Numbered from the stretch's first letter, positions 5,494 through 56,116 are shown. The stretch: 58,744 nucleotides of DNA from a virus (IMGVR_UViG_3300032282_001014:1-58744); one strand, 5' to 3'. The notes: generated from the sequence alone by a model not told the origin. Numbers and translations are program-made.

Positions 5494-5936
5494 TGAGATT
5501 TATAGGTTTTGACCGAGAGGACGAAGCCGAAAAATGGGCTAAAGAAATGATTGGCACACCGGATGTTACAGGTTTTTGCCGAGTTATGTCTGCAGTTGAT
5601 GAAAATGATGAATTTGTATGCGCTGTCGTTTTTACAAATTTTTCATCTAGAAATGTAGACGTAAACATTGTTTTAAAGCCTAAAGGGTTCGATTCACCGA
5701 AAGAGTTTTTAGTATTGTTTAATGGTGTTTTTAGTTATATATTCGGTCAGCTAAAAGCTGTTAGAGCAACCGGATTGATTAGAGGTAAAAACATAGCCTC
5801 AAAGAATTTTGTAGAACATTTAGGTTTCAAACTAGAAGGTGTAATGCGTAAGTCTTTTGAAGATGACGATTTACACATTTACGGGTTTCTAGCAGAAGAG
5901 TATAATACACATACATGGTATAGAGGTAACTTATGA
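5490..5936 (+). CDS. GNAT-family acetyltransferase in the morphogenesis module
   Basis: NIASKNFVEHLGFKLEGVMR is the RimJ/RimL-type GNAT motif; start chosen at the ATGA overlap. Confidence 0.75.
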   Translation: MMRFIGFDREDEAEKWAKEMIGTPDVTGFCRVMSAVDENDEFVCAVVFTNFSSRNVDVNIVLKPKGFDSPKEFLVLFNGVFSYIFGQLKAVRATGLIRGKNIASKNFVEHLGFKLEGVMRKSFEDDDLHIYGFLAEEYNTHTWYRGNL

Positions 5937-7900
5937 ATGAGAACATGATGACAGGCTCTATGCCTATGGATCCTAGAATGGCTCCTCCTACGGGAGATAT
6001 GCCTATGGATCCTATGATGGGTCGTCCTGATTCACCTCCCATGCAAGGTGGTAGACCTCAGGTTCTAAATAAAGAGACTATTTTAAATATTGCAAATAAA
6101 GATGCACGGCTTCAGCAGGGTATTGACGAAATTGAACAACAAATTGCGAATATGCCTGTCTCTTCTGGGGACGTTAAAGAAATCATTAAAATGTTGGAGT
6201 TTGTTTTAAACAATCCTGACAAATATGAAGCAGTTAGAGCCGCAGCTATTAAAGACGGGGTGGTCGATGAAGATCAAGTTCCTCCCCAATTTGATAAAAT
6301 TTTCATCATATCATTGCTTGTTGTTTTATACGGGGTAGAAGAAAGACTTGACGGTCAAGGGTTTGCTCGTGGCGGTTTAGCTGTAGCTAGAAGCTTACAA
6401 GCTAAAGGACGTGGTGGCGACACAATGCTAGCCCATATTAACCCTAGGGAAGCTGAAGTGTTGCGTAGGATGGGTGGTTCAGGTACTATCAACCCAAACA
6501 CAGGACTCTATGAATTTAAAAGTCTTAAGAAACTTATAGGCGCTGCGCTACCTATTGTATTAGCTGTTGCAGTACCAGGAATTGGAACAGCCATCGGTAC
6601 AGCTTTAGGAGCTGGTACAGGTATTGGCGCAAGTATTTTAGGTGGAGCTGTTTTAAATGCTGGTAGTGCGGCGTTAACTGGAGGCGATGTTGGCCAAGCT
6701 GCTTTAATGGGTGGTTTGGGAGGCGGTTTAGGCGGTGTTGTGGGAAGTACAGTCGCTCCTGGCTCAAGCGCAGCTATGCAAAACGTCATAGGTAGCGGTT
6801 TAATTGGTGGTGCTTACGGAGCGGCTACGGGTAAAGGTTTCATGGAAGGTGCTACGTCCGGTGCTATAGGCGGGTATCTTGGAGACAAATTCGGAAGCGG
6901 CTCTAATGCTTCTATAAACGCTGGAGCTAAAAGTTTTGGAAACGCTTTAACCGCAGGGTATGACCCTAAAACAGCAGCTTTAACAGCTTTAGCTGCCGGA
7001 GGAACCCAATACGCTACAAATGCTTATAATGGCACTCAAGATGCGTCTCAAGGTTTGAAAATGAAACCGGCTGAAATGACTGTAGATGGGTTAAAAGCAC
7101 CTCCAGCTCCTGGCGATCCAGTTAGATTTAGCGGTTTGAGTCAAGCTAACACTGATTTGTATGGAAATCCAAAATTTATAGACACAGGAACTCAAAACGC
7201 AAATTACAGTTTAAGTAATACTCCTAATGCTGCAAGATCAATGTCAGGAAACTTTAGTACTGTTCCTTCAGACGGAAGCATTTCAAACAACTTGACGGTT
7301 CCTGCAGGTTATAATAACCCAATAGGTTCTTCTATAGGAGCACCGCAGGGTAATAGTGGTCTTTTAGGTGGAAACTATAGTTACGGTGACTTGGCAACGG
7401 CAGGACTTCTTGCTAGTTCTTTGTCAAGTTCTCCTCCTCCTGAAGCAGAAAAAGCTATAGACTCTATGTCTGCTGATCAAAAAGAGTATTTTAACAGACC
7501 TTCTGTTTCTTGGGATTGGAATAGAATGATGCAGGACGCTAACAGACTAAATTTAAGTTTATCTGATTATATGGCTACAAATTGGAATAAAATAACATCA
7601 GGTACTTATAATTCACCTGTTAAAATGGCTAACGGCGGTGTTTTATCTATGATTGGACGATTTGCACAAGGTGCTGGTTCTGGTCGTGAAGACACTATAG
7701 ACGCTAAACTTTCCGATGGAGAGTATGTTATGGACGCTGAAACAGTAGCGTTACTCGGAGACGGATCTAACAAAGAAGGTGCGCTTCGTTTAGACGCAAT
7801 GCGGGCACAGCTCCGCAAGCATAAAGGTAAAGAGATGTCTAAAGGTAAATTTAGCGCTAATGCAAAATCACCACTCCAATATTTTAAAGGAGCGATGTAA
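5933..7900 (+). CDS. internal virion / DNA ejection protein
   Basis: 655 aa with G/A-rich hydrophobic helices; DTMLAHINPREA...INPNTGLYEF and DTIDAKLSDGEYVMDAETV segments; FARGG and MANGG motifs. Confidence 0.65.
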   Translation: MNENMMTGSMPMDPRMAPPTGDMPMDPMMGRPDSPPMQGGRPQVLNKETILNIANKDARLQQGIDEIEQQIANMPVSSGDVKEIIKMLEFVLNNPDKYEAVRAAAIKDGVVDEDQVPPQFDKIFIISLLVVLYGVEERLDGQGFARGGLAVARSLQAKGRGGDTMLAHINPREAEVLRRMGGSGTINPNTGLYEFKSLKKLIGAALPIVLAVAVPGIGTAIGTALGAGTGIGASILGGAVLNAGSAALTGGDVGQAALMGGLGGGLGGVVGSTVAPGSSAAMQNVIGSGLIGGAYGAATGKGFMEGATSGAIGGYLGDKFGSGSNASINAGAKSFGNALTAGYDPKTAALTALAAGGTQYATNAYNGTQDASQGLKMKPAEMTVDGLKAPPAPGDPVRFSGLSQANTDLYGNPKFIDTGTQNANYSLSNTPNAARSMSGNFSTVPSDGSISNNLTVPAGYNNPIGSSIGAPQGNSGLLGGNYSYGDLATAGLLASSLSSSPPPEAEKAIDSMSADQKEYFNRPSVSWDWNRMMQDANRLNLSLSDYMATNWNKITSGTYNSPVKMANGGVLSMIGRFAQGAGSGREDTIDAKLSDGEYVMDAETVALLGDGSNKEGALRLDAMRAQLRKHKGKEMSKGKFSANAKSPLQYFKGAM

Positions 7901-33849: not shown

Positions 33850-34084
33850 TGACTTCGCTCATGAGATCATGCTCTGCTTCTCAGCGTCGCCGGTGTCCGC
33901 TGACATCAACGCAACACGGGTGTATACCGTCATGGAGCAGATCCGCAAGGACGAGCGTGAACGCTGTGCCCAGAAAGCAGACATGCTAGCCAAGAGCTGG
34001 CGAGGTAACGAGAGCTTTAGCCGAGAGGTGCGGGAGACATCGGCAATGGCTTGTGACCTGCTAGGTGCGGTGATACGAGGATGA
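33839..34084 (+). CDS. hypothetical protein between terS and terL
   Basis: 81 aa with ERERCA; overlaps both neighbours. Confidence 0.5.
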   Translation: MTNDDFAHEIMLCFSASPVSADINATRVYTVMEQIRKDERERCAQKADMLAKSWRGNESFSREVRETSAMACDLLGAVIRG

Positions 34085-35652
34085 ACGCTCCGCTCTCACC
34101 AACGGTAATGCTAGACCTGATCAAGAAGGAACAGGACAGGCGAGCTGCTACCTCAAGCCTATACGAGTTCGTGAAGCAGTCGTGGCACGTAGTAGAGCCA
34201 GGAGTACCCTTCGTGCCCAGCTGGCACATTGAGGCTATCTGCGAGCATCTTGAGGCAGTGTCGGCAGGGGACATAACTCGACTGCTCATCAACATCCCGC
34301 CACGACACTCCAAGTCAACCATCGTGTCCGTCATGTGGCCAATGTGGGAGTGGATTGAACAGCCAGAGGAGAAGTTCCTGTGTGCCTCGTACTCCGGTGT
34401 GCTGTCAACCCGAGACAACTTGAAGGCACGACGACTGATACAGTCGCCATGGTATCAGGAACGATGGCTCAAGAACTTCACGCTGTCAGGCGACCAGAAC
34501 GCTAAGCAGAGATTCGAGAACGACAAGACCGGCTACCGCATCGCGACCTCGGTAGGCGGTACAGCGACGGGTGAGGGTGGATCCCGCCTCCTGCTCGATG
34601 ACCCACACGGCGCACAGGACGCACAGTCCGACGCAATGCGTGAGACGGCATTAGAGTGGTTCGATCAGGTATGGTCAACCCGACTCAACGATCCCAAGCG
34701 AGACGCCATGGTAACCATCATGCAGCGTCTGCACGACCGAGACATCAGCGGACACATCCTTGAGGACATCAAGGGATGGGAGCACATATGCATACCGGCA
34801 GAGTGGGATGGCAGGGAACGCAAGACAGTGCTCGGTGGCTATGACCCTCGTAAGGTCAAGGGAGAGCTGATCTGCCCAGAGCGATTCGGCGACAAGGAGA
34901 TCACTGCACTCAAGCAGTCCCTCGGCGTGTACGGCACCAGCGGACAGCTACAGCAGGATCCGGCACCGATAGAGGGTGGTATCCTGAAGACCAAGCACTT
35001 CCAGCAGTGGTCAGCAGACAAGGAGCTGCCGCAGTTTGAGTACATACTGCAGAGCTACGATTGCGCATTCACCGAGAAGACCACAGGAGACCCGACAGCC
35101 TTCACAGCCTATGCGGTGTTCTCGATGAAGGGTAAGCGACAGGTCATGCTGATAGACGCATGGGACGAGCACCTCAGCTATCCCGCACTGCGGAAGAAGG
35201 CGATAGCAGAGTGGAACACGGAGTATGGTGGTGCCACAGACGACAGCCCATACGCACGGGCGAGACGACCCAACAGGGTACTTGTAGAGGCTAAAGCAAG
35301 TGGCCAGAGCCTAATACAAGATTTGCGCTTGGCGAATGTGCCAGTTGTAGGTTATAATCCTGGTAATGCTGACAAGGTATCCCGTGCCCATCAGGCAGCT
35401 CCCGTGTTGGAGCAGGACATACTGTGGATCCCTGAGTCAAAGAAGAATCGTGGTCACTATGTAACATGGGCAAAGGGATTCCTCAAGCAGCTTGAGAAGT
35501 TCCCGATCGCTGAACATGATGACTACGTTGATACGTTCACACAGGCTATCATCTACCTACGGAATGACGGGTGGTTCCAGATGCCAGTGGCAAAGGACAT
35601 TGATGAACCAGCACAGAAGAAACGCGAGAGGATAAACCCATATGCAGCCTAA
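34081..35652 (+). CDS. terL: terminase large subunit
   Basis: INIPPRHSKST (Walker A), LLLDDPH (Walker B), IMQRLH, nuclease SYDCA...VEAKASG...HDDYVD. Confidence 0.92.
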   Translation: MNAPLSPTVMLDLIKKEQDRRAATSSLYEFVKQSWHVVEPGVPFVPSWHIEAICEHLEAVSAGDITRLLINIPPRHSKSTIVSVMWPMWEWIEQPEEKFLCASYSGVLSTRDNLKARRLIQSPWYQERWLKNFTLSGDQNAKQRFENDKTGYRIATSVGGTATGEGGSRLLLDDPHGAQDAQSDAMRETALEWFDQVWSTRLNDPKRDAMVTIMQRLHDRDISGHILEDIKGWEHICIPAEWDGRERKTVLGGYDPRKVKGELICPERFGDKEITALKQSLGVYGTSGQLQQDPAPIEGGILKTKHFQQWSADKELPQFEYILQSYDCAFTEKTTGDPTAFTAYAVFSMKGKRQVMLIDAWDEHLSYPALRKKAIAEWNTEYGGATDDSPYARARRPNRVLVEAKASGQSLIQDLRLANVPVVGYNPGNADKVSRAHQAAPVLEQDILWIPESKKNRGHYVTWAKGFLKQLEKFPIAEHDDYVDTFTQAIIYLRNDGWFQMPVAKDIDEPAQKKRERINPYAA

Positions 35653-36062: not shown

Positions 36063-39000
36063 ATGCCTGAGTTCCGTTCCCGTCCTGAGCAATATCCCGT
36101 CATAGGTGCGTTAGGTCGCTACCTAAAGAAAGCTGATGATTTCGCTCGTGCACCAGGAGGTTATGAGAACCCACCAGTGGCTATCATCTCAGACTTACTC
36201 AACATACCGCCAATATACCGCACGTTAGAGAACATCAATTACGGTACACCAGTCACACAGGGTAGAGGTGAGACCTATGGGTTCACGGCAGACACCAAGG
36301 ATGCTCTAACGGGTGCACTAGACATTGCGCCAATTGTACCGGCGGCAGCACGTATGGTCAAGCCTCTGGCCAAAGCGGCAGCGCCATATGCTGCTCGGCA
36401 CGCAGTGAACCTCGCTGAGAAGTACGGTGTGTCACCGACCATGAACGTCATCAAGCCTAAAGGTGGTAATTGGTTGAATCACACCGTTGGAGACGCCGTT
36501 GAACCATTGAAACGTCATTTGACTTTCACACCTCCTTCAGAAGTACCTAACACTGACGCAGTTAACAAATGGGTTGACAGCAAGTTAGCTAAGTATATTA
36601 CTAATGAAATGGCTACGCCGGAAGACCCTATAAGAGCCTTAGCTGAAAAAGATATATTGCATTTTCAACCTCGCTATGTGGGTCTATACTCAAATCTCAT
36701 GGACACAAGAATGCGAGGTGGTTTCCCAAGAGAAGGTATGGCTAATTCACCGTTAGCTATTGATTGGGAAAAGTTCGCAGACAGTGCTATAAATCGAAGC
36801 ACAGCTGGAGAACAGTTGAACTTTAGAGGCAACGCAGAGAATATGCCTTGGTTAACCAAAGTGCCTCCAGAGACTCCGGTTTATAGTCCTAAACATAATG
36901 TAATGGCTTCAGAAAATTTAGGCTTCCCGCATCTCATAGACGAGCTTAAAAATGCGACAAGTGCCGCGAGTGACTTGCCAGCAAACCTGCGTATTGATTT
37001 GAAAAGCTTAGACAAGCTCACTGTACCTCAGGCAGTAGAGCGTGTAGCAAAGATAAACGCATTCCGAGCTAAACAAGCTGCGGAAGCCGAGCGTGAAGGT
37101 ATGATGGCTAATCTGCAGGAGAAGCCGCGATTAGCAGATGAAGATTTAAATTTATCGTTTACTGAAAAGCCAGGAGGCACTTGGGTTGACATCCCAGAAA
37201 CAACAGATGCCAAAGGGATGAAATTATGCAGCTCTATAGGCAAAGCAGGTGGTTGGTGTACTCAGAGCGAATGGGCAGCTAAAGATTACGGTTCAGGAAT
37301 TAACCGGCTCACAGCACTTTTAGATGCTGAAGGTCGTCCACATGTGCAAGTGAAGATCACGCAAGACGTAGATGAAGTCGTTGCTATCGAAGACGCAACT
37401 ATGTATATGACGCCGGAGCAAGAAATTGCTTACGACCGTCATTTCAGCAAATTAGACAGACCTCCTGAGTTTGGTGAAAGTCTTGACTGGATGGAAGAAA
37501 ATGCTCCGGACGCTTACAAGGTGTACGAAGAAATTATAAACAGTCAACCTAAGCTGCCGCCAAGTATCACCGAACTCAAACCTCCTGGCAACTCGTTTAG
37601 CAGCGATCGCGCACAAGAGTACTCCAAGCGCGACCCATACTACGGATCAAAATTGACTCAGTCTGTTCTCAAGTTCTTAAACAGCGGAGAGTGGGGTAAA
37701 GTTAACGATCTACATCATTACGGTATCGTGGATTTAGAAAAAGACCCTGTAATGTTGACGCAGTATTTAAGAAGGATCACTAATGCAAGCGACGCTGAAG
37801 CTCAAACGATATTCAACGCTGCTGTCGACGCGAACCCAAACGCACCACGTTTCATGACCACTATTCAGCTACGCGACTTTATTGAAGGCTCTATGAAACC
37901 AGAAGGTTTCGCCCAAGGAGGTTCCGTGAATTTCGCTGCTGGTGGTTACGCAGAGTACGATGACGACCTGATACGTCAGATGGCAGCGGAGCTGGTTGAC
38001 GCACAGCAGGAGAGAGCAGAAGAGTCCAGAGACATACCTGAGCTTTCCCTGCTTGACAGCTTGAGGAACATGAGTCCCCTCGGTGGGCGTGTGTCTGCGG
38101 GACCATTTGACTTAGACGCGATGACCCACAGCGGCGGCGTAAACTTGAGAGGCAGCGTAGGTACAGACAACTTACGTGGGTATGTTGACGTAGACCCTCG
38201 GCAGAAGAAATTGTCTCAGTTGGGAGTCACTTACGAAGACATGAATCCTCGCGGCGGGTATCACTTGAACGCTAGCATGGATCCCGAGACACGTGAGAAG
38301 ACTCTCAATGCTTTGTACCGTAAACAACTGAGCGACGGATCCGAGCTTATGGTTGGCGGTACACATAGACCCGATAGCCGGCAGACCATGTTGAACCTTA
38401 TGTACCGTTACGGCTTCGCGCAGGGTGGTGAGGTACAGGCAAGGACTCGCGCAGGGACACCGGCTAAACCTACTTTTTTAGATGATCAAATCGAACGGAC
38501 TGAGGCTCGTTTAAAAGGTTTAGTAACCGATCCTGATCAAGAACTTCGTAACATTGCCCGACAGTATTTCCCTTCTGAGGATGACACCCCAGAAGAGCGT
38601 TATCGTAAGATGGAAGACTTAGCTTTAGGTTTTGCCGGAACTACTGGTAAAATTCCAAACAAAGGTGGTGCGAAGCTAAGCGTGCCTGAGATTGATTTAT
38701 CTCGTCGTAAACTATTTGGTTTAAGCACTGAACCAAAACCGGCTAACTTACCTGTTGAACAACCTAACATAATTAAAAATGTGTTAGAAACTCCTGTAAC
38801 TCGTAGGCAGGTTTTAAGGAGCGGATTAGCTAACACTTTAAAATCTTTTATGCCAGAGGGTTTATCAAATCCGTTAACTCGTTTAGCTAGCGAGGAAACT
38901 GCTAAAGAAACTGCTAAAGAAGCGGTTAAATCTACAGCTCCTAGTTTAATGTCAGAGTTAAAAGCATCGATTTACAATATGCCTAGGCGATCATTAGATC

Positions 39001-40109
39001 ATAACTGGGGTATGAACACGCTCCTTGACAGAGGTTACATCACTAAAAACTTATTAAACTACAGCGGAGAATCGCTTCTAAATAAAATGTCTTTAAAAGA
39101 AGCTTTGCGCCAGATTAAATCTGACCCAAAAGTTTATAAAAAGTTTAAAAAGACATTAAATGATTTGAACAATGAAGAACGTGTCCCATTGATTCAATAC
39201 TCAAAAAATAAAGAAGATTATTTAAAATTACTTTCTGAAGACGGATACTCTAAAAACATAATAGCTAGAGAAAGCAGGTTATGGGATCAAAACGATGGTA
39301 AGTTTAAACGAGCACGTTTACCGAGTGAAGAATCTTCTTACCCTATGTACGACCCTCATCATTCTCCATCTAATTTAGAAGAAGGTTTTGAAAAAGGCGG
39401 TAAGGTTAAACGTAAAGAGCCTTCACCGTTTGACGATTTAGAGCCGACGTTCGGTGACCGGATGGGCGCATGGGTGTCAGATAAAGTAACCGAAGGCGGT
39501 ATTAATTTATACGACAAACTGTCTAACCGTGACCGAATGTCCGCTGCGCATAAAATTTATCTTGATACGTTTGCGCGAGATAAACGAGACCCAATCACCG
39601 CTAAAGATTTCAACACCGAAGAGTTAGCAGAGTTGCAAAACTTGATCCGGCAGAAAGAAAAGATGTTAGGCGGTAAAGGTAAAGGTTACATTGAGTACAA
39701 AGATTATACCGAGCTAACGGGTGGTGACCGGCGTAAAGGAATTACGGCAAACCTGATTGGCGGTGTCATGCCTCCACGTCCTTCGCTGGCTAAGTCGCTC
39801 GGACAATTTAATTACGAATTAGACCCTACAACTAAACAGTACAAGATAATTGATGAGTATGATTTTAATCCGCAGCAGATTGAGTACCAAGGTAGGAAAG
39901 TTGACGTTCCTGTCGAACACTATGGCGATTACCTTGGAGAAGGGTCTCTTTACGCTCTTGCTCGTTTATATGGTGGTCGTAAAATGCCTCCTGGCACTGG
40001 GCGCAAAGTCGAACTCTCAGTACCGTACGCAAAGGGTGGAGCGGTAGAGTTCAATCCTGATGAAATTGATATGATGGCAGCGCAGTTAATAGAGGAACAA
40101 AATGGCTGA
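36063..40109 (+). CDS. large modular (polyvalent/polyprotein-like) protein, probably virion-packaged
   Basis: 1348 aa between terL and portal; PcfJ-like GGWCT...LLDAEGRPHVQV segment; five [FY]xxGG punctuation motifs; beta-barrel-like segment. Confidence 0.7.
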   Translation: MPEFRSRPEQYPVIGALGRYLKKADDFARAPGGYENPPVAIISDLLNIPPIYRTLENINYGTPVTQGRGETYGFTADTKDALTGALDIAPIVPAAARMVKPLAKAAAPYAARHAVNLAEKYGVSPTMNVIKPKGGNWLNHTVGDAVEPLKRHLTFTPPSEVPNTDAVNKWVDSKLAKYITNEMATPEDPIRALAEKDILHFQPRYVGLYSNLMDTRMRGGFPREGMANSPLAIDWEKFADSAINRSTAGEQLNFRGNAENMPWLTKVPPETPVYSPKHNVMASENLGFPHLIDELKNATSAASDLPANLRIDLKSLDKLTVPQAVERVAKINAFRAKQAAEAEREGMMANLQEKPRLADEDLNLSFTEKPGGTWVDIPETTDAKGMKLCSSIGKAGGWCTQSEWAAKDYGSGINRLTALLDAEGRPHVQVKITQDVDEVVAIEDATMYMTPEQEIAYDRHFSKLDRPPEFGESLDWMEENAPDAYKVYEEIINSQPKLPPSITELKPPGNSFSSDRAQEYSKRDPYYGSKLTQSVLKFLNSGEWGKVNDLHHYGIVDLEKDPVMLTQYLRRITNASDAEAQTIFNAAVDANPNAPRFMTTIQLRDFIEGSMKPEGFAQGGSVNFAAGGYAEYDDDLIRQMAAELVDAQQERAEESRDIPELSLLDSLRNMSPLGGRVSAGPFDLDAMTHSGGVNLRGSVGTDNLRGYVDVDPRQKKLSQLGVTYEDMNPRGGYHLNASMDPETREKTLNALYRKQLSDGSELMVGGTHRPDSRQTMLNLMYRYGFAQGGEVQARTRAGTPAKPTFLDDQIERTEARLKGLVTDPDQELRNIARQYFPSEDDTPEERYRKMEDLALGFAGTTGKIPNKGGAKLSVPEIDLSRRKLFGLSTEPKPANLPVEQPNIIKNVLETPVTRRQVLRSGLANTLKSFMPEGLSNPLTRLASEETAKETAKEAVKSTAPSLMSELKASIYNMPRRSLDHNWGMNTLLDRGYITKNLLNYSGESLLNKMSLKEALRQIKSDPKVYKKFKKTLNDLNNEERVPLIQYSKNKEDYLKLLSEDGYSKNIIARESRLWDQNDGKFKRARLPSEESSYPMYDPHHSPSNLEEGFEKGGKVKRKEPSPFDDLEPTFGDRMGAWVSDKVTEGGINLYDKLSNRDRMSAAHKIYLDTFARDKRDPITAKDFNTEELAELQNLIRQKEKMLGGKGKGYIEYKDYTELTGGDRRKGITANLIGGVMPPRPSLAKSLGQFNYELDPTTKQYKIIDEYDFNPQQIEYQGRKVDVPVEHYGDYLGEGSLYALARLYGGRKMPPGTGRKVELSVPYAKGGAVEFNPDEIDMMAAQLIEEQNG

Positions 40110-42597
40110 GAAGATAAAAGATGATGAAGAAGAGTTAGAAGGTGAAACCGTTCGTCTGGAAGATGTAGACAACGAAGTAGAGGACACCGAAGACGGTGGC
40201 GCAATTCTGCGCGAAAAGAACGACGTAGACCTCAAGCGTAACCTGAGCCATTTCTCAAACATTGTTGAGGAAGTTGATCAGTCCGAGTTATCCACGGCAG
40301 TTACTGACCTGCTTGAAAAGATTGACAAAGATAAGACTGCACGTGAGAAGCGTGACAAGCAATATGAGGAAGGTATCCGTCGTACCGGACTGGGTGATGA
40401 TGCTCCTGGTGGTGCGCAGTTCACCGGCGCAAACAAGGTAGTACACCCCATGCTGGTTGAGGCGTGCGTAGACTTCTCAGCACGATTCATGAAGGAAATT
40501 TTCCCTTCAAATGGTCCTGTACGTAGTAAGATCTACGGTGTAAAAGATAAAGATAAGTCAGAGAAAGCAGAACGTAAAGCTACGTTCATGAATTGGCAGA
40601 CCACCAAGCAGATGAAGGAGTTCCGCTCCGAGCTTGAGCAGTTGTCTACGCAGCTCCCTTTAGGCGGGGGGCAGTATCTTAAACTGATGTGGAATCCTCA
40701 GTTTAAACGTCCTGGTTCTGAGTTCATCGCGATTGATGATATATACCTGCCGTTCGCTGCTACTAATTTCTACTCTGCTGAGCGCAAGACACACGTACAG
40801 TACATTACAAAAATGGAGTACCAGAAACGTGTCAAGCAGGAAATGTACATTGACGTTGATTTAGGAATGCCAGGGGATCCTGAGTTCAGTAAGTCAACAA
40901 TAGCTAACGATAAAATTGAAGGTCGTCAAGCTTCGTCATATAATGAAGACGGGTTACGTACAATCTACGAAGTATATACGTACTTGGACTTCGGTGACGG
41001 TGATGAACCTTATATCATATCTATTGACAAAACGACCAGCGAAGCTCTAGCGTTGTACCGTAACTGGGAGCCAGAGGACGAGCAGCGTCAAGAGTTAGAT
41101 TGGATTGTTGAGTTCCCGTTTGTACCTTGGCGTGGTGCTTACCCAATCGGCTTGACGCATATGATTGGCGGTTTGTCTGGAGCAGCCACCGGCGCACTAC
41201 GCGCACTGATGGATTCAGCGCATATTCAGAACATCCCAACCTTGCTCAAGCTAAAAGGGGGACCGTCCGGACAGACTATCAACGTACAACCTACTGAAGT
41301 TGTTGAGATGGATGGCGGTGCGATGATTGACGACGTGCGTAAGCTAGCCATGCCTATGCCGTTTAACCAACCTAGTCCTGTTTTGTTCCAACTTCTCGGC
41401 TTCCTAGTTGACGCAGGTAAAGGTGTTGTACAGACGAGCTTTGAAAAGCTGTCAGACCAGAGTCCTAACCAGCCCGTCGGCACAACTCTAGCTCTAATTG
41501 AGCAGGGTATGGTAGTGTTCAGTAGTATTCACGCACGTCTCCATTCATCTATGGAGAGAGTGTTTGAGATTCTGCACCGAATTAACAGCGCTTACCTCAC
41601 TGAAGAAGACATTAAAGCGCAATCGGCTGGTATTGAGATAGATCCTAGTGACTTTGATGGTCCGATGGACGTAATTCCTGTGTCTGACCCTGCTATTTTC
41701 AGTGAAACACAGCGATTTGCACAGATTCAAGCGGTAATGCAGCGTGCAGCTACGGTTCCACAGCTGTATGACGCTAGAAAAGTAGAGGATATGTTCCTCC
41801 GCACGCTGAAAATCAGCGATACGGACGTGCTTCAGCCTAAACCAGCGTCAGAAGACATGGATCCGGTGTCTGAGAACGTAGCGGCTACCATGGGAAGTCC
41901 AGTTTACGTGCTCCCAGCACAAGATCACATAGCGCATTTGATGACGCACCTTGCTTTCTTAAAGTCTCCGTTGTTTGGGCAGAATCCAGCTATTATAAAG
42001 ACGTATTTATACCCGATGGCTATTCATTTACGTGACCACTTACTTAATTATTACTTAACGGAAGCTCATGAGGCTGTGGATAAAGCACAAAAAGAAAAGT
42101 TAATTGAAGAAGACTCAGAACAGCAAGTTTCTGTCATACTTGAGGTTCAAAGGTACATTGAGAATCAGTTAGCTACCTTTGCAAATGAGTTAGCGCAGAT
42201 AGATAAACAAGCTCAGCAATTTAAACCTGAGCCTCCGATGCCGCCAGACAGCAGCTTACAAGTAGCTAAGATGAGTGCTGAATTGCAAGGTCAAGCGTTG
42301 CAGCAGAAAGCTCAAGCAGATCAGGCTAGACTGCAGATAGAGCAACAGAAGCTGGTTGAGAAGCAGAAAGCTGATCAACAGAAGATGACTTCCGACCAGA
42401 TGTCAAGTCAAGCTGAACTCCAGCGTGAACAGTTACGTCAACAGTCAGAAGATCAGCGCACTATGGCTGAATTACAAGCTCGTATGGAAATGAATACCGA
42501 TGACAACGAGACAGCAATGCGTCTTGCGGCAGCGGAAATTGCCAGCGGAGATAAAGTCGCCGTTAGCACAGGAACTGGTATTAACCCAGGAGTTTAA
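40102..42597 (+). CDS. portal protein
   Basis: 831 aa; VHPMLVEACVDF, PVGTTLALIEQG...SSIHARLH, DVIPVSDP, Q-rich C-terminal barrel; upstream of the head genes. Confidence 0.85.
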   Translation: MAEKIKDDEEELEGETVRLEDVDNEVEDTEDGGAILREKNDVDLKRNLSHFSNIVEEVDQSELSTAVTDLLEKIDKDKTAREKRDKQYEEGIRRTGLGDDAPGGAQFTGANKVVHPMLVEACVDFSARFMKEIFPSNGPVRSKIYGVKDKDKSEKAERKATFMNWQTTKQMKEFRSELEQLSTQLPLGGGQYLKLMWNPQFKRPGSEFIAIDDIYLPFAATNFYSAERKTHVQYITKMEYQKRVKQEMYIDVDLGMPGDPEFSKSTIANDKIEGRQASSYNEDGLRTIYEVYTYLDFGDGDEPYIISIDKTTSEALALYRNWEPEDEQRQELDWIVEFPFVPWRGAYPIGLTHMIGGLSGAATGALRALMDSAHIQNIPTLLKLKGGPSGQTINVQPTEVVEMDGGAMIDDVRKLAMPMPFNQPSPVLFQLLGFLVDAGKGVVQTSFEKLSDQSPNQPVGTTLALIEQGMVVFSSIHARLHSSMERVFEILHRINSAYLTEEDIKAQSAGIEIDPSDFDGPMDVIPVSDPAIFSETQRFAQIQAVMQRAATVPQLYDARKVEDMFLRTLKISDTDVLQPKPASEDMDPVSENVAATMGSPVYVLPAQDHIAHLMTHLAFLKSPLFGQNPAIIKTYLYPMAIHLRDHLLNYYLTEAHEAVDKAQKEKLIEEDSEQQVSVILEVQRYIENQLATFANELAQIDKQAQQFKPEPPMPPDSSLQVAKMSAELQGQALQQKAQADQARLQIEQQKLVEKQKADQQKMTSDQMSSQAELQREQLRQQSEDQRTMAELQARMEMNTDDNETAMRLAAAEIASGDKVAVSTGTGINPGV

Positions 42598-42751: not shown

Positions 42752-42945
42752 ATGTAGAAACAAAACTTCTCAATAGGCTGAAAACGGCGCAAGGTGAGTT
42801 CGCCATGGAGTCTATGAAGAGACCACAAAATCGAGATGCTTTTGAGTACGGGTATCGAGTAGGCGTCGTGGCAGGTTACGAGGCTGCAATTAATGTACTT
42901 CTTTCAATGTTAGATGAGGAGAAAAATAGTGACAACGACCTATGA
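42748..42945 (+). CDS. hypothetical head-module protein
   Basis: 65 aa with EYGYRVGVVAGY. Confidence 0.6.
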   Translation: MNVETKLLNRLKTAQGEFAMESMKRPQNRDAFEYGYRVGVVAGYEAAINVLLSMLDEEKNSDNDL

Positions 42946-43336
42946 GAACGCGCTAGATGAGGCATTTCCAGCAGTAAATGCTGGAGTACGTCCTTATGGA
43001 AGCCGTGTTCTGGTTCAAATCCGTAGTCCGAAGAAAAAATCAGCAGGGGGTATCATAATCGATACTGGTTCTCGTGATACTGAAAAGTGGAACACGCAAA
43101 TCGCTAAAGTGGTCGCGATTGGTCCTCTGGCTTTTCACAACCGAGACACCATGCAACCATGGCCAGAAGGCGCATGGGCGAAGGTTGGGGATTATATCCG
43201 TGTAGCTAAGTACGGTGGCGATCGCTGGGAAGTACCTCTAGAAGACAACGAAGCTGCGTTGTTTGTTATGTTTAACGATTTGGATTTGTTGGGTGAGGTC
43301 ATTGGCGACCCACTAGCTATCCGAGCATTCATCTGA
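42929..43336 (+). CDS. GroES-like co-chaperonin
   Basis: VRPYGSRVLV...SAGGIII...AKVVAIGP...KVGDYI..AKYGG...NDLDLLG; GTG start after GAGGAG. Confidence 0.8.
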   Translation: MTTTYENALDEAFPAVNAGVRPYGSRVLVQIRSPKKKSAGGIIIDTGSRDTEKWNTQIAKVVAIGPLAFHNRDTMQPWPEGAWAKVGDYIRVAKYGGDRWEVPLEDNEAALFVMFNDLDLLGEVIGDPLAIRAFI

Positions 43337-43350
43337 TAAGGAGATGAGAT

Positions 43351-44310
43351 ATGGCTGACGTAATGAAAGAAGATGACGAAGACATCAAAGATAAAGATGA
43401 TGTTGTAATCATTGAAGAAGACCCTGCTAATAAAGCAGAAGATGATGACGACGATCAAGATGATGAACGATCGGCTAAAGCTGATGACGGAAATGAAGAT
43501 GAACGGGAAGCTATTCGTGAACGTCGCCGGCAAGAAAAACTAGATCGTAAAGAACGTCGTGATAAAGCTATTTCTAGAGATAAACTAGAGCTAGACTTTT
43601 TACGTAAACGTAACGAAGATTTAGAGCGCCGAGTAACGGTTCAAGAGCAACGTACGCATCAGTTAGACGTAAACGGTTTAGAAGCTCAGATTCAGAAAGC
43701 TCAAAACGATGCTCAAATGGCTGATAGAATCATAGCTAAAGCAGTTGAAGCCGGTAACGGTGAAGACGTAACCCAAGCTATGCGCTACCGTGACGAAGCT
43801 TTATCTAAAATCCAACAATTAGCTTACGCTAAGCAGAATTTTCAGCAAAGAGCTGTGTCTCCTCCTCAAGATAAAATAGATGAGGCTACTGCGTATTATG
43901 CTAAGCAGTTTATAGAAAATAACAAATGGTATGATCCTCAAGGTCGTAATGAGGATTCAGCTATTGTTATGGCAATTGACCAATCTTTAGCAAAAGACGG
44001 TTATGACCCTCGTACAGAAGATTATTGGGTTGAACTTGAGCGTCGTGCGGCACGTCGTTTACCTGAGCGGTTCGGCAAACAGTCTCGTGAACGCGATGAT
44101 GATTACGGAGATAAACAAGAGCGTAAACCTCGCGGTGGTCCGGCAGTCGGTTCAGGTAGAGAACACGCTCCAACATCTACCCGAAAAGAGATCTATCTGT
44201 CCCCAGACCGTAAGCAAGCTCTTATTGATGCTGGAGTATGGGACGACCCTGTTTTACGTATGAGATACGCTAAGAGGTATGCTGAATACGACAAAGCTAA
44301 CAAGGCTTAA
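43351..44310 (+). CDS. head scaffolding protein
   Basis: Acidic N-terminus, long coiled coil, NKWY motif, C-terminal capsid-binding-like helix. Confidence 0.7.
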   Translation: MADVMKEDDEDIKDKDDVVIIEEDPANKAEDDDDDQDDERSAKADDGNEDEREAIRERRRQEKLDRKERRDKAISRDKLELDFLRKRNEDLERRVTVQEQRTHQLDVNGLEAQIQKAQNDAQMADRIIAKAVEAGNGEDVTQAMRYRDEALSKIQQLAYAKQNFQQRAVSPPQDKIDEATAYYAKQFIENNKWYDPQGRNEDSAIVMAIDQSLAKDGYDPRTEDYWVELERRAARRLPERFGKQSRERDDDYGDKQERKPRGGPAVGSGREHAPTSTRKEIYLSPDRKQALIDAGVWDDPVLRMRYAKRYAEYDKANKA

Positions 44311-44937: not shown

Positions 44938-45531
44938 ATGTCTTCGACTAGCGCACCTTTTGGTTTTCGCGCATCGTACCACAACAGTGGTCAAATGCGT
45001 CCGAAAGCCTATGTAATCGCTTCGACCTATGCGGCAAATATTTTCTCGGGCGACCCTGTAAAATTAACCGATAACGGTGTTATTCAACTTGGCACTTCAG
45101 ATGGTACTCGTTCAGGTACTGTTGATGGTGTTACTTTGCTAGGCATTTTCGCTGGTTGTCAGTACAACGATGCTACTGGTAAACCAACGATTTCGCCATT
45201 TTGGCCAACTGGCGCAACAGGTACTGAAATTACCGCTTGGGTGTATGACGATCCTGAGACACTATTTGCTGTTCAGTACAACAATCCTTCTTCTGGTACA
45301 ACTATGCAGACTGCGGTCGGCGAAGAATGTGATTGGACTGTAGCATCTCCTGGTGGTTCGACCCAAACAGGTCTTTCCAATACTTATTTGACTGCTATTG
45401 TAGCAACCTCTGGTCAGTTCCAGATTACAGGTTTCGAAGGTAACGTCAATGACTCTATAACAGACGCTTATATTGTGGCTACGGTTCGTATTAACGAACA
45501 CGCCTACAAAGCTGCTGTTAATAGTATTTAA
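44938..45531 (+). CDS. capsid-associated (decoration/cement) protein
   Basis: APFGFR...NIFSGDPVK...LGIFAGCQY...VYDDPETLF pattern directly upstream of the major capsid gene. Confidence 0.65.
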   Translation: MSSTSAPFGFRASYHNSGQMRPKAYVIASTYAANIFSGDPVKLTDNGVIQLGTSDGTRSGTVDGVTLLGIFAGCQYNDATGKPTISPFWPTGATGTEITAWVYDDPETLFAVQYNNPSSGTTMQTAVGEECDWTVASPGGSTQTGLSNTYLTAIVATSGQFQITGFEGNVNDSITDAYIVATVRINEHAYKAAVNSI

Positions 45532-45546
45532 AGGAGGGTTGATTAA

Positions 45547-46461
45547 ATGGCAACTCCAATGAGAAGTACCGACTTTCGGTCGGTAGTTGAACCTATCCTT
45601 AACGAAGTCTTCGATGGTGTTTATGACCAGCGTGCAGACGAGTGGAAGATGGTTTTCCGTGAGCAAAAAGGTATTCCCCGTAATTATCACGAGGAACCTG
45701 TTCTGTATGGTTTTGGCGCAGCTCCAGAACTCCCTGACGGTATGGCTGTTACGTATCAGTCCGGTGGTGTTCTGTTCCTGCAACGCTACCTCTACAAAGT
45801 CTATGGTTTGGCTTTCGCGCTGACCAAAGTTCTGGTAGAAGACGGCGACCACATCCGTATCGGTAAGACCTACGCTGAGCACCTCGCTCAATCGCTGGTT
45901 GAAACCAAGGAAACTCTGGGCGCTAACATTCTGAACCGTGCGTTCAATGCTGCTTATACTGGCGGCGATGGCGTGGCTCTTGTATCTACTAGCCACCCAA
46001 TCGTTAACGGTGTGTTCAGCAATCAGCTGACCACTGCTGCAGCTTTGTCGCAAACATCGCTTGAGCAGATGCTGATTCAGATCCGCAACGCTGTTGACAA
46101 CAACGGTAAGCGTATCCGTTTGACACCTAAGAAGATCGTTTCTGGTCCTTCTAACGTATTCCAAGCTGAAGTTCTGCTGAAGTCCGTCTTGCGTGCTGGC
46201 ACAGCTGACAACGACATCAACCCTGTTAAGTCGATGGGTCTGTTGGCTGAAGGTCAAGCTAACCTTTCTCGTATTACTTCAACTACCGCATGGTGGGTTC
46301 AGACTGATGCTCCACAAGGTCTGAAGCTGTTGATGCGTCGTGGTTTGGAGAAGTCAATGGAAGGTGATTTCGAGACCGACTCGATGCGTTACAAAGCCAC
46401 CGAGCGTTACATCTTCGGTTGGACTGACCCACGTGGTGTCTACGGCACTGCTGGAGTCTAA
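45547..46461 (+). CDS. major capsid protein (HK97 fold)
   Basis: 304 aa; strong SD GGAGG; GGDGVAL.STSHP, LSQTSLE, GDFETDSMRYKATERY..GWTDPRG; followed by a terminator. Confidence 0.85.
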   Translation: MATPMRSTDFRSVVEPILNEVFDGVYDQRADEWKMVFREQKGIPRNYHEEPVLYGFGAAPELPDGMAVTYQSGGVLFLQRYLYKVYGLAFALTKVLVEDGDHIRIGKTYAEHLAQSLVETKETLGANILNRAFNAAYTGGDGVALVSTSHPIVNGVFSNQLTTAAALSQTSLEQMLIQIRNAVDNNGKRIRLTPKKIVSGPSNVFQAEVLLKSVLRAGTADNDINPVKSMGLLAEGQANLSRITSTTAWWVQTDAPQGLKLLMRRGLEKSMEGDFETDSMRYKATERYIFGWTDPRGVYGTAGV

Positions 46462-47461: not shown

Positions 47462-47794
47462 ATGGCAAAAGGACCACAGTACGTTAAAGATTTTGACTTC
47501 AGCGTAAAACCTTGTGAGTACAGCTACGGCGGTAAAGTAAAAGGTTACGCAAAAGGCGGCGTAATTGAGAAAGCTACCGGAGAGCGTTACCCTAGCAAAA
47601 AAGTTATGATGAAGCACGAAGCCATGGAAACTCCTCGCATGCAGCGTGAAGAAGTCATGCGACGTTCTGAAGTTAAAGGTGCTATTCCTGGTAAAGCGAT
47701 GCGTCGTTCTGTACCTGTAGCACCTCAAGTGCCGATGATCGGTATGCAAAAAGGTGGTTCGGCAATGAAAATGAGCAAAATTACAAAGAAGTAA
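47462..47794 (+). CDS. small basic head-internal protein with three xxxGG motifs
   Basis: K/M-rich; YSYGGKV, YAKGGVI, MQKGGSA. Confidence 0.6.
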   Translation: MAKGPQYVKDFDFSVKPCEYSYGGKVKGYAKGGVIEKATGERYPSKKVMMKHEAMETPRMQREEVMRRSEVKGAIPGKAMRRSVPVAPQVPMIGMQKGGSAMKMSKITKK

Positions 47795-52841: not shown

Positions 52842-54458
52842 ATGGCAATTCATGGTTATCCTGGGCAGATAATAAGCGCTATACAACCTACAGCATTTAG
52901 CTCTGCTATATGGACGCTTACTAACGCTAACAAAGCTTACAATACTGTTGTGCAGATATTTACTGCAACAGCTAATTGGGTGTGTCCCCAAGGTGTAACT
53001 TCTGTTGAGTATTTATGTGTAGCTGGTGGCGGTTCTGGAGGTTCTGTCGCCGGAGGTGGCGGCGGTGCAGGTGGGTTTAGAGCAGGTTCAGGTTTAGCGG
53101 TTGTCCCAGGAACTTCTTACACAATTACTGTCGGCGGCGGTGGAGCAACTCAAACAAGCACTGGTCCTGGCGCTGCAAACCCAGGAGTTAACTCTTCTAT
53201 AGGTTCTTTGCTAGTTTCAACTGCTGGGGGTGGGGGTAGTAATAACGGTGGCAATGCTGGTAGCGGCGGTTCTGGCGGTGGTGGTCCTAGAAATGGTGGC
53301 GTTGGTGGCACTGGTAATTCTGGAGGCTTTACTCCGTCAGAAGGAAATAGAGGCGGTGTTGGTTCAAATCCAGCAGGTACTGCAGGTGGTGGAGGTGGAG
53401 CGGGTGGTGTTGGAGGTGACGGTGCTGGTGGATCCGGTGTTTATGCTGGGGCTGGAGGTGCAGGTTTACTCTCAGCTTTGAGCGGTATTGGCGATTACTA
53501 TGCTGGCGGTGGTGGTGGCGGGGCTGATCAACCAGGAAATTACGGTGGTGTAGGTGGTAGAGGTGGTGGCGGTAACGGTGCCGCAGCAAATAATTCAGGT
53601 AGTGCCGCAGCTGTTAATTCTGGCGGCGGTGGCGGTGGGGGTGGTGGCAATGGAACTCCTTGGGACGGCGGGGCTGGTGGTTCAGGTATAGTAATCCTTA
53701 GATATATTCAATCTGGAATTTCTATAGTGTCGTTTAACACCACTACCACTTACAAAATACCTTCTGGTTTTACACAAGCTGATTACCTTGTGGTTGCAGG
53801 AGGCGGCGGTGGTGGTTCGCGTCACGGAGGCGGTGGTGGCGGTGGCGGCGTTAGAACAGGAACCGGTCTTTCTGTTTCCGGTACGTACACAATCACAGTA
53901 GGTGCTGGCGGTGCTGGAAGCACTAATACAGGCACAGGAAGTAATGGAGTTGTAGGAGGAAATTCTACTTTTTCATCTATTACTTCTACTGGTGGCGGTT
54001 ATGGTTCAGGAGGTGCTAACGGAGGTCCTGGTGGCAGTGGGGGCGGCTGTGGTCCTGGGTCATCCGGAGGTCCTGGGACTCCTGGCCAAGGAAATGATGG
54101 AGGAGCTACAGCCACTGTTGATTACCATGGCTCTGGTGGCGGTGGTGCCAGTACTGCTGGTGGAAGTGTTACCGGACAGTTCGGAGGTGTTGGTGGAGAT
54201 GGTACTATATCAACTCTTAGCGGGTCTGGCGTATATTATTATGGTTGTGGAGGCGGTGGCGGTGCACTACAAGGTATCGGTGGATCATCAGGACCAGGAG
54301 GTGCTGGCGGGTCTGGTAGTATAAACGGCGGTATAGGAGCTGGGGTAGGACAAGGAAACTCTGGTGCAGATAACACCGGAACAGGCGGCGGTGGAGGAAA
54401 CTCAAGTTTAGGTGCCTACAATGGTGGTTCAGGTTTAGTTGTTCTGAGATTATATTAA
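52842..54458 (+). CDS. glycine-rich tail fibre / receptor-binding protein 1 (two tandem Gly-rich domains)
   Basis: Two units, each running from (V/A)(E/D)YLxVAGGG to GGSG(I/L)V(I/V)LR. Confidence 0.75.
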   Translation: MAIHGYPGQIISAIQPTAFSSAIWTLTNANKAYNTVVQIFTATANWVCPQGVTSVEYLCVAGGGSGGSVAGGGGGAGGFRAGSGLAVVPGTSYTITVGGGGATQTSTGPGAANPGVNSSIGSLLVSTAGGGGSNNGGNAGSGGSGGGGPRNGGVGGTGNSGGFTPSEGNRGGVGSNPAGTAGGGGGAGGVGGDGAGGSGVYAGAGGAGLLSALSGIGDYYAGGGGGGADQPGNYGGVGGRGGGGNGAAANNSGSAAAVNSGGGGGGGGGNGTPWDGGAGGSGIVILRYIQSGISIVSFNTTTTYKIPSGFTQADYLVVAGGGGGGSRHGGGGGGGGVRTGTGLSVSGTYTITVGAGGAGSTNTGTGSNGVVGGNSTFSSITSTGGGYGSGGANGGPGGSGGGCGPGSSGGPGTPGQGNDGGATATVDYHGSGGGGASTAGGSVTGQFGGVGGDGTISTLSGSGVYYYGCGGGGGALQGIGGSSGPGGAGGSGSINGGIGAGVGQGNSGADNTGTGGGGGNSSLGAYNGGSGLVVLRLY

Positions 54459-54466
54459 GGTGAACG

Positions 54467-56116
54467 ATGAGTAATTACCCAGGACGAATCATCACGAGAA
54501 ATCCAATAACAATATCTACTACTCAAGCGTCGGGTGTGTGGACATTGCAACAGGCTTTACAATCTATAAAAAGCGGAGTATGGCCAGGAATTGGCTCGAC
54601 TATTATACAAAGTTTTACTGCTTCTGGTAGCTGGACTGCACCTTCTGGTGTTACGCAGATTGACTACTTAGTTGTAGGTGGCGGCGGTGGAGGTTCTCAA
54701 GATATTGCAGGAGGTGGCGGGGGTGGTGGCTTTAGAACAGGTACGGGTTTAACGGTTATTCCTGGCACTACGTATGCTATAACTGTGGGGGCAGGAGGTA
54801 GAGGTAGCATTGCTACTGGTAATGGAAATCTAGGAGCAAGCGGGGGTGCTTCAGTATTTAGCAGTATTATTTCTTCTGGCGGTGCTCGTTCTGGAAATTA
54901 TTTAATGATTCCCGCAGATGGCGCTTCTGGTGGGGGGGCAGGTAGTGTGGCTCCTCGTACTGGTGGTTTAGGTAATGTTCCAAGCGCACCTTCTGCGGGT
55001 GGTTACACGGCTCCTGCTGTTGCATACCAAGGGTTTAATGGTGGTAATAGCGATGGTAGCGCTGCTGGCGGAGGCGGTGGCGCTGCCGGTCTTGGTAGCA
55101 ATAATAGTGGTTTTACAGGGGGCGCTGGCGGTGCTGGTCAGATAACAACTATTTCTGGTTCCCCAGGAACTTATTATGCCGGCGGCGGTGGTGGAGGGGG
55201 CGATAGCCGTTACGGTGGTGGAAATAGTGCCGGTGGGGTTGGCGGTGGCGGGGCTGGGGCTGGCTCATCGGCATCTGGAACAAACGGTACTGCCAATACT
55301 GGCGGCGGGGGTGGGGGTGGCAGAGAAAATAGTAGTGCAGGAGGCGCTGGCGGCAGTGGTATAGTAATTATTAAATACGTAGCTCCTGTTATTAGCTCTG
55401 TTACTTTTAACTTTTCGCAGTCATATACTATACCTGCTGGCGTTGTTAGCGTAGATTATTTACTCGTTGGTGGTGGTGGCGGTGGGTCGGGTGGCGGTGG
55501 CGGTGCAGGCGGTTTCCTTTCTGGTACGGCATTTCCCGTCACTGCTGGAAGCACAACAACTGTTGAAGTCGGTGGCGGCGGTAATTATAATTCTCAAGGT
55601 ACAGGTGACGCCTCTCCTGGGACAGATTCTGTGTTTTACACGTTAAGAGCTTTTGGTGGCGGTGGCGGTGCAGGGGGTTACAGATTCTCTGTGGGTATGA
55701 GTGGAGGTTCTGGCGGCGGTGGTAGCATGGGATCTGGCTCAGTAGGTAACGCTCAAGGTGGCGGCGCAGTGGCTGGGCAAGGTAACAACGGCGGCGCAGC
55801 AACTGGAAGCAGTAATCCTGGGTGGATATCTGGCGGCGGTGGTGGGGCGGGTGGCGTTGGGGGTTCTGCTTTAAGCTGGAACACGGGTAATGAGTCTCCG
55901 TTTGGTCCACTAGGGGGTCCTGGTTTATCTTCAGCAATTACTGGTCAATCTGTGGTGTACGCTGCAGGCGGTCAAGCGTATTATTCAAACACAGTAAGTG
56001 CCAACGCTGCTGATAATTCAGGTAACGGTGGTGGCGGTTCTAGAGGTCAAAACTCTATAACTAACGGATGGGTCGGCGGCTCGGGTAGAGTTATTATCAA
56101 ACTAAATTACAGTTAA
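54467..56116 (+). CDS. glycine-rich tail fibre / receptor-binding protein 2 (two tandem Gly-rich domains)
   Basis: SGVWTLQQA N-terminus; two DYLxVGGGG...GGSGxVIIK units. Confidence 0.75.
   Translation: MSNYPGRIITRNPITISTTQASGVWTLQQALQSIKSGVWPGIGSTIIQSFTASGSWTAPSGVTQIDYLVVGGGGGGSQDIAGGGGGGGFRTGTGLTVIPGTTYAITVGAGGRGSIATGNGNLGASGGASVFSSIISSGGARSGNYLMIPADGASGGGAGSVAPRTGGLGNVPSAPSAGGYTAPAVAYQGFNGGNSDGSAAGGGGGAAGLGSNNSGFTGGAGGAGQITTISGSPGTYYAGGGGGGGDSRYGGGNSAGGVGGGGAGAGSSASGTNGTANTGGGGGGGRENSSAGGAGGSGIVIIKYVAPVISSVTFNFSQSYTIPAGVVSVDYLLVGGGGGGSGGGGGAGGFLSGTAFPVTAGSTTTVEVGGGGNYNSQGTGDASPGTDSVFYTLRAFGGGGGAGGYRFSVGMSGGSGGGGSMGSGSVGNAQGGGAVAGQGNNGGAATGSSNPGWISGGGGGAGGVGGSALSWNTGNESPFGPLGGPGLSSAITGQSVVYAAGGQAYYSNTVSANAADNSGNGGGGSRGQNSITNGWVGGSGRVIIKLNYS

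Follow-up and report, generated by a model that had tools for sequence, protein, structure and literature searches.

The window analysed here, a 58,744-nucleotide viral DNA from IMG/VR (IMGVR_UViG_3300032282_001014:1-58744), is a complete virus genome (CheckV 100%) that carries, between its genes for the large terminase and the portal protein, an open reading frame (ORF; 36063..40109, + strand) for a 1348-amino-acid (aa) protein, P0001, punctuated by short aromatic–Gly-Gly motifs. Translation and homologue searches strongly support the view that this ORF encodes an accessory, multi-module virion cargo protein of the polyvalent type. A preliminary description of the window had listed five [FY]xxGG copies in the ORF and had proposed that they join interchangeable effector modules into one packaged chain. 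All five are correctly placed: FAQGGSV (37908, aa616) and FAAGGYA (37932, aa624), together at 37908..37952; FAQGGEV (38415..38435, aa785–791); FEKGGKV (39387..39407, aa1109–1115); and YAKGGAV (40026, aa1322), which forms a C-terminal tail with an amphipathic helix at aa1332–1346 (40026..40106). These and all other features of P0001 lie on the + strand. Our analysis leaves little doubt that the motif is genuine and serves, at the protein level, as a junction element of the polyvalent cargo protein.

In P0001 itself, the pattern [FYM]xxGG occurs 5 times against 0.73 expected, and at least 5 copies were obtained in 3 of 3000 residue shuffles; for the narrower [FYM]AxGG, 4 copies are seen against 0.06 expected, and 4 or more arose in 0 of 3000 shuffles. 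When the count was conditioned on the 20 GG dipeptides of the protein, the signal was modest (5/20, binomial P = 0.04). The expected enrichment over the glycine background is thus strong by residue shuffling and weaker on GG dipeptides alone, such that P0001 is insufficient by itself and the strong support comes from its homologues. The motif is present in all 112 homologues retrieved by a word-indexed search, and 244 relatives, which yield the eight-residue consensus G-[YF]-A-x-G-G-x-V, contain 778 instances against 172 expected. Among 707 unique instances from these 244 proteins (duplicates collapsed; instances <10 aa from the N terminus or <17 aa from the C terminus excluded), positions outside the search pattern are also conserved, with Ala at +1 in 64%, Val at +6 in 68% and Gly at −1 in 38%. 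Chance was rejected as the origin of the motif on the basis of the shuffles and the family-wide excess. In 113 distinct instances, third codon positions are free and each of the four codons for Ala, Gly and Val appears, which argues for selection on the peptide and not on the DNA.

Alignments of P0001 with its relatives break at the motif. Coverage by 243 relatives is 164 at aa615 and only 12 at aa655; 141 of 311 high-scoring segment pairs (HSPs) end within aa620–649, and 24 start within aa1100–1109, at the fourth copy. Of 101,216 internal HSP ends, 12.9% are no more than 5 residues from a motif, compared with 3.5% for random positions, in a set of pairs that are non-independent and from which HSPs of >95% identity and ends <15 aa from a terminus were dropped. 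Of the 15 proteins that share the C-terminal folded module (aa1116–1321; 39408..40025), 11 have its start 0–3 aa from a motif; in the other four (P0133, P0168, P0176 and P0202) it starts further away.

A related locus, L001, is 90–96% identical to the window at the nucleotide level and lacks 38435–39389. It reads YGFAQGGAV-H-MEKGGKAK, and the window reads YGFAQGGEV-[317 residues]-FEKGGKVK; because L001 has nothing of this stretch between its adjacent motif copies, the stretch (aa792–1108; 38436..39386; BLASTN gap 38435–39389), whose left edge is the third copy, can be assigned as a cassette. Like L001, the homologues P0002 and P0003 are short here, with copies 3 and 4 side by side. The cassette has a GC content of 0.381 and a GC content at third codon positions (GC3) of 0.278, compared with 0.530 and 0.590 in the preceding module (aa651–784; 38013..38414), a GC-rich and mostly low-confidence unit common to P0002, P0113 and P0114, and with a GC content of 0.447 for the whole window. 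Sub-modules of the cassette recur behind a motif in P0220, P0251 and P0252, and only 4 matches came from a search aimed at shorter proteins similar to the insert. Two claims of the preliminary description, an AT-richer stretch within the ORF and motif copies at the borders of interchangeable modules, are borne out by these data; when orthologous loci were aligned as it had proposed, module breakpoints coincided with the motif. Sequence comparison therefore strongly supports the motif as the place at which cassettes are gained and lost, with the AT-rich cassette as a recent gain. The cassette also contains two twin-arginine-like strings (38697–38726, LSRRKLFGLS; 38796–38831, VTRRQVLRSGLA), far from any N terminus.

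Structures were predicted with AlphaFold2 (AF2) for aa1–650 (46 sequences; mean predicted local distance difference test (pLDDT) 82.9) and aa600–1348 (29 sequences; mean pLDDT 56.3). The first model shows a folded core, with low confidence at aa90–128 and aa616–633; the second is weak overall and contains a helical unit at aa999–1082 and the C-terminal module (pLDDT 80–91 over aa1119–1323). Structure prediction, another of the checks suggested beforehand, placed every motif copy in a low-confidence linker: all five are in stretches of pLDDT <50 beside folded units, copies 1 and 2 within aa616–633. The layout that is shown or strongly supported is an N-terminal adaptor, a conserved, apparently PcfJ/GNAT-like core and three swappable cassettes, with the motif in a flexible linker at every junction and at the C-terminal end.

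The N-terminal adaptor (aa1–89; 36063..36329) is a helical domain (AF2 helices, pLDDT 52–84) found in 81 of 247 family proteins, starting within 40 aa of the N terminus in 58 of the 81. It is the sole part of P0001 (about the first 100 aa) shared with three phage records in INPHARED, and in one of these it forms the start of a 304-aa protein that is otherwise unrelated and is encoded near the terminase. The conserved core (aa130–611; 36450..37895; pLDDT mostly >90), apparently PcfJ-like with a possibly GNAT-like subdomain, occurs at the start, middle or end of relatives, usually behind the N-terminal helical domain. In this unit, H290, D293 and C399 are among the invariant residues and H427 is near-invariant. 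The stretches LGFPHLIDEL (36918–36947) and GKAGGWCTQ (37239–37265) hold residues of this kind and possibly belong to a GNAT-like fold. The PcfJ-like family PF14284 was matched by P0003 (30.4 bits) and P0091 (34.2 bits), above the 25-bit cut-off, over ~45 residues that align near aa400–445 of P0001; P0001 itself gave no PF14284 match at E ≤ 0.01. With VIA-align, aa342–575 matched Hat1 (1bob_A) at a borderline Z of 8.1 (root-mean-square deviation 3.7, 145 residues aligned) and dozens of other GNATs at Z 5.6–7; the best Foldseek E was only 0.38, and an ESM Atlas search returned PcfJ-type leads only, at 0.80.

The end of the protein is also recurrent. In 201 of 244 family proteins the last motif lies within 60 residues of the C terminus (exactly 27 in 45 of them), and it is usually followed by x-YDPxEIDxIVxxLxEEFHG, with several other short tail types in addition. 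P0001 has this tail pattern at its end and again internally at aa616–650, where the helix DDDLIRQMAAELVDAQ (aa633–648; 37959..38006; AF2 helix aa634–649) is built like that of the C-terminal tail; a BLASTP self-comparison of P0001 reported no internal repeats. Pfam (cut-off E ≤ 0.01) and PHROG scans of P0001 found no family, and its own cassettes matched no named family in Pfam, PHROG, profile or fold searches. Profile searches against PDB sequences gave nothing meaningful (best E 0.022 and 1.8), Foldseek gave no match at E ≤ 0.001 for either AF2 model, and VIA-align on the aa600–1348 model reached a Z of at most 4.0. Four colicin-M-family chains matched the C-terminal module weakly (Z 3.1, 112–134 aligned); this module contains IIDEYDFNPQQ (39846–39878), and the His-Arg pair of the colicin M motif is absent from it.

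The motif is found in other proteins of the window. All copies that had been listed outside P0001 are present, in the ORFs starting at 5933 (6362 and 7625), 9313 (10144 and 10174) and 47462 (47519, 47546 and 47744); lacking Ala at +1, both copies in ORF 9313 are poor matches to the consensus. The first of these ORFs (5933..7900, + strand) encodes a 655-aa ejection-type protein, P0253, in which the copies read FARGG and MANGG. The last (47462..47794, + strand) encodes a 110-aa basic protein, P0246, with three copies; its 10 homologues in related loci contain 8 strict motifs ([FYM]A.GG.[VIL]) in 1,466 aa, and larger Lys/Gly-rich versions of it have 8–10 copies. The late block of the window (42 ORFs, 12,292 aa) holds 25 loose and 10 strict motifs, whereas the early/replication block (35 ORFs, 6,702 aa) holds 1 loose and 0 strict motifs. 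The earlier remark that no such use of the motif was noticed in the replication enzymes agrees with these counts, and the suggested comparison of structural with non-structural ORFs shows it concentrated in late/virion-module proteins.

The same pattern was seen across 80 related IMG/VR loci, for which genes were called crudely as longest ORFs, with the capsid gene mis-assigned to an antisense ORF. The strict motif occurs 139 times in 80 P0001 homologues (72,873 aa) and 0 times in 63 terminases, 71 portals, 39 scaffold-like proteins, and the primases and helicases. Another 16 copies are found in 566 unassigned ORFs, most of them in Lys/Gly-rich proteins with 8–10 copies, small post-portal ORFs and extra genes beside the polyvalent gene. 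In two loci, cargo genes have been split off (L063, 473 aa; L048, 309 aa), and their products carry a motif at either end and the tail, but no N-terminal adaptor. Caulobacter phage RW has neither the polyvalent gene nor the multi-motif small protein. These sequence data strongly support the motif as common to other, presumably cargo-type, virion proteins of the same phage group.

P0001 belongs to a large family, with 1512 representative clusters at E ≤ 1e-3 in an exhaustive search (query aa149–1348), and a gene of this kind lies between terL and portal in 52 of the 80 loci, most exceptions being contig ends. The homologues contain ART-PolyVal (in 5), DUF6973 (in 11), DUF4214 (in 2) and SLT (in 1) domains; because several effector-type domains are shuffled among them, P0001 was filed as a polyvalent virion cargo protein. 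The notion of chained, packaged effectors in the preliminary description fits this published class, whose members are, according to excerpts of PMC5512222, large, late-gene, multi-domain proteins with shuffled effector domains, including the ART-PolyVal and lytic transglycosylase domains also seen in P0001 homologues, and are thought to travel with the DNA. Unlike P0001, they have been proposed, in the same excerpts, to be processed by a zincin-like MPTase; the corresponding domain (PF18818), which is frequent but not obligatory in the class, was not matched anywhere in the complete genome at E ≤ 1. INPHARED contains no cultured member of the family, only the three records that share the first 100 aa. 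In the main text of PMC5512222, linkers, glycine and PcfJ are not mentioned, PMC9599517 makes no mention of portal, polyvalent or internal virion proteins, and the papers listed by a literature search with the motif strings were all unrelated. The polyvalent class is known; the texts searched did not describe the junction motif, its sharing among virion proteins or the cassette insertion.

What the motif does is less clear. As a tentative first choice, put at somewhat short of an even chance, we favour a site that a trans-acting factor recognises, most likely for proteolytic processing, combined with a C-terminal anchor helix. Cleavage at the motif would free the modules after packaging or delivery and would also remove the short C-terminal amphipathic helix, which may act as an anchor or targeting peptide; such a "tag-and-cut" arrangement would resemble the T4 capsid-targeting sequence, with a protease of host origin or of an unrecognised kind. 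Processing is favoured because the motif copies lie in flexible linkers between independently folding units with ~8 positions conserved, and because P0253, lambda gpH and T5 pb2 tie the motif to tape-measure C termini and to cleavage. Polyvalent proteins are, moreover, expected to need separation into parts (excerpts of PMC5512222).

Several observations weigh against cleavage. None of the S78, S77, S49, ClpP, C48, MPTase-PolyVal, Prok-JAB and NlpC/P60 peptidase families was found in the complete 58,744-b genome; the preliminary description had already noted that no prohead protease is recognisable, and PF03420 and PF04586 (S77/S78) indeed gave no match, a scaffold-like protein being present instead. 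The conserved core appears to resemble GNATs, not peptidases. The motif can be repeated in tandem every 8 residues (P0022, aa691–715) or form N-terminal arrays (P0060 and P0073), which suits multivalent binding better than cleavage, and the separately encoded cargo genes keep it at both ends, though there is nothing from which their products would need to be parted. The conserved N-terminal domain is a better candidate for the anchor in head incorporation. Two further points come from well-studied phages: 17 T7 late proteins contain 0 strict motifs, as does the HK97 tape measure, which has FAKGAG instead, and the T5 cleavage site described below has Arg, and no aromatic residue, before its Ala.

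Tape-measure proteins provide the closest parallels to processing at the motif. The match of P0253 to the tape-measure family phrog_6090 (aa561–627, E 5.5e-5) spans its MANGG element; P0001 has no PHROG match and hence no tape-measure family across its motif. P0253 also contains a GDTMLAHINPREAEVLRRMGGSGTINPNTGLYEF segment, a long Gly/Ala-rich hydrophobic stretch (~aa200–330) and a tape-measure-like C terminus, MANGG...DGEYVMDAETV. Lambda gpH, as had been anticipated, carries the motif as FATGG (aa733) and YATGG (aa778), and, with two strict copies, is the sole carrier among 23 lambda morphogenesis proteins. Excerpts of PMC12617516 place the gpH cut in a Gly-rich, unresolved region, without identifying site or enzyme, and this region holds FATGG. 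Excerpts of PMC10038345 report that T5 pb2 is cut after R1127; the next residues are A1128-E-G-G, and the 1219-aa protein has only one other A.GG site. As in P0001, an aromatic-A-x-G-G element lies in a disordered Gly-rich stretch near the C terminus of these proteins and is followed by a terminal helix, which docks in the tail tip, and, as far as the excerpts go, both are cut at or very near that element. In contrast, P0001 is no tape measure, and its phage has no long tail.

These parallels raise the prospect that aromatic-A-x-G-G(-x-V) is a general handling signal for carried and ejected phage proteins that also marks the tape-measure maturation cut, an analogy that we consider unlikely to extend so far. 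In HK97-fold capsids the signal might then act as a peptide for loading or processing, with encapsulin loading peptides or the T4 targeting sequence as parallels. Alignment to T5 R1127|AEGG would predict a gpH cut at F733|A734, which would yield a 120-aa, 12.5-kDa fragment, compared with the reported ~14 kDa. The idea that the motif is common to all ejected proteins was rejected, given the T7 count (0/17) and an HK97 tape measure without it, the strict motif being carried in HK97 by gpI and gpJ instead. HK97 gpI (L087 13834–14442) has FAAGG and YAFGG. Lambda gpK (L085 14276–14875), annotated as a C40 peptidase, may be a candidate for gpH cleavage.

Some of what counts against cleavage speaks for a different reading, which we regard as possible but doubtful: that the motif, alone or with the helix, is a loading or retention tag that docks, without being cleaved, to the capsid interior, scaffold, portal or channel. 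Each tagged module or protein would then be carried in the particle, and fusion of tagged proteins would leave tags at the junctions. The multivalent tandem and N-terminal arrays and the split-off cargo genes that have motifs at both ends and the tail, yet no N-terminal adaptor, favour docking or loading. The Lys/Gly-rich proteins with 3–10 copies, the 201 of 244 family proteins that end in motif and short tail, the absence of the motif from non-virion proteins, the joint absence of polyvalent gene and multi-motif small protein from RW, and the absence of all eight searched peptidase families point the same way. However, no binding partner was found, and the conserved N-terminal domain is the more obvious anchor, since it heads an unrelated protein and is present in 81 of 247 family proteins; moreover, the lambda and T5 proteins with a related element reside in the tail lumen, not the head, and are cleaved, according to the excerpts cited above. 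It is distinctly unlikely, in our view, that the motif is merely a favoured flexible linker (an aromatic residue, a small residue, a Gly-Gly turn and Val) that keeps modules apart, with breakpoints at the motif because insertions are tolerated only in linkers. All copies do lie in low-confidence linkers, and breakpoints would be expected in linkers whatever the model; but generic linkers are less conserved than these eight positions, Ala at +1 and Val at +6 among them, are across >700 instances, and the motif is also found at the ends of proteins and in small proteins without domains that it could keep apart.

Two other mechanisms fare worse. A DNA-level recombination site that drives cassette exchange, with the peptide as a by-product, would account for the indel between L001 and the window, both ends of which fall inside motif-coding sequence; free third codon positions, the use of all synonymous Ala, Gly and Val codons and the lack of extended nucleotide identity at the junctions make it hardly credible, and it was rejected on codon variation. 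We hold it highly improbable, too, that GG-x-V imitates the GroES mobile loop as a handle that recruits host GroEL to fold the modules. The E. coli GroES loop has an Ile-Val-Leu triplet after GG, whereas the motif has a single hydrophobic residue there, and the register differs (A-x-G-G versus A-G-G). In favour of such a handle, the phage encodes a GroES homologue with the loop KKKSAGGIII, and HTVC023P-type phages have GroES in their core genome (excerpts of PMC9599517).

Processing at the motif and its alternatives can be compared with other known systems. In T4, the peptide that targets internal proteins to the head is afterwards removed by the prohead protease; in contrast, no S77 or S78 protease is encoded here. 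The T4 internal proteins with their capsid-targeting sequence and P1 DarB (PMC9024508, excerpts) are alike in using a short peptide at one end to send cargo into the head, and differ in that their signals are N-terminal and occur once per protein, whereas the motif is C-terminal and internal and is repeated. Encapsulin cargo-loading peptides are short, Gly-containing sequences in flexible tails that bind an HK97-fold shell. Adenain/Ulp1-type proteases cut packaged precursor proteins at GG sites with the consensus (M/I/L)xGG, from which the motif differs in that its hydrophobic residue is one position further from GG; Peptidase_C48, the one clan CE family searched for, is absent from the genome. 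In polymorphic toxins, the VENN peptide of CdiA and the PxxxxDPxGL peptide of Rhs mark the point at which variable C-terminal cassettes are exchanged, and MuF-domain phage toxins are encoded beside the portal gene. P0001 resembles these in having a short conserved peptide at the cassette exchange point and, like MuF toxins, in its location near the portal; unlike CdiA and Rhs, it has different motifs and several junctions per protein instead of one. A MuF match for P0001 was excluded at E ≤ 0.01, no Pfam family having been found.

For the exchange, loading and separation of modules in polyvalent proteins, the motif represents a conserved eight-residue junction element in a family of at least 1512 representative clusters that offers clean natural examples of cassette gain. 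Should it serve in processing or loading, the handling of chained cargo by a phage that lacks a prohead protease would be accounted for, a portable tag for bringing foreign proteins into phage particles would become available, and the site and mechanism of lambda gpH cleavage could be tested directly. Even as no more than a hinge, it would be a useful boundary marker for annotating very large unannotated proteins.

The genomic setting agrees with an accessory gene. P0001 is preceded by terL (34081..35652, + strand; phrog_38 E 1.1e-88; PF17289) and followed by the portal gene (40102..42597, + strand; phrog_1216 E 4e-15), and then by genes for a GroES homologue (42914–43336; PF00166 E 4.6e-9; mobile-loop-like KKKSAGGIII), a scaffold-like protein with an acidic/basic coiled coil (43351–44310) and a 304-aa HK97-type capsid protein (45547–46461). 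By portal, the closest cultured phages are Caulobacter RW, KcrB, RLK and GB2A (52% identity, including the RW portal), followed by Roseobacter CRP-901/902 and Pelagibacter HTVC023P/027P. Phage RW has the order terL-tRNA-portal, with no gene at the position of P0001, which indicates that P0001 is an accessory insertion there. That the phage is an HTVC023P/Caulobacter-RW-like podovirus in which P0001 is accessory is thus strongly supported.

A few minor observations concern these neighbours. In RW (L083 2445–5247), terL is annotated as two coding sequences split by a SAM-dependent methyltransferase gene, and a tRNA-Val occupies the place of the polyvalent gene of the window. A 331-aa antisense ORF (45262–46257, − strand) overlaps the capsid gene of the window (45547–46461) and is probably spurious. 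Further downstream lie two Gly-rich ORFs, 52842–54458 (538 aa, 93 GG) and 54467–56116 (549 aa, 82 GG), the first of which matches phrog_2295 (E 1.3e-69), a family without an assigned function.

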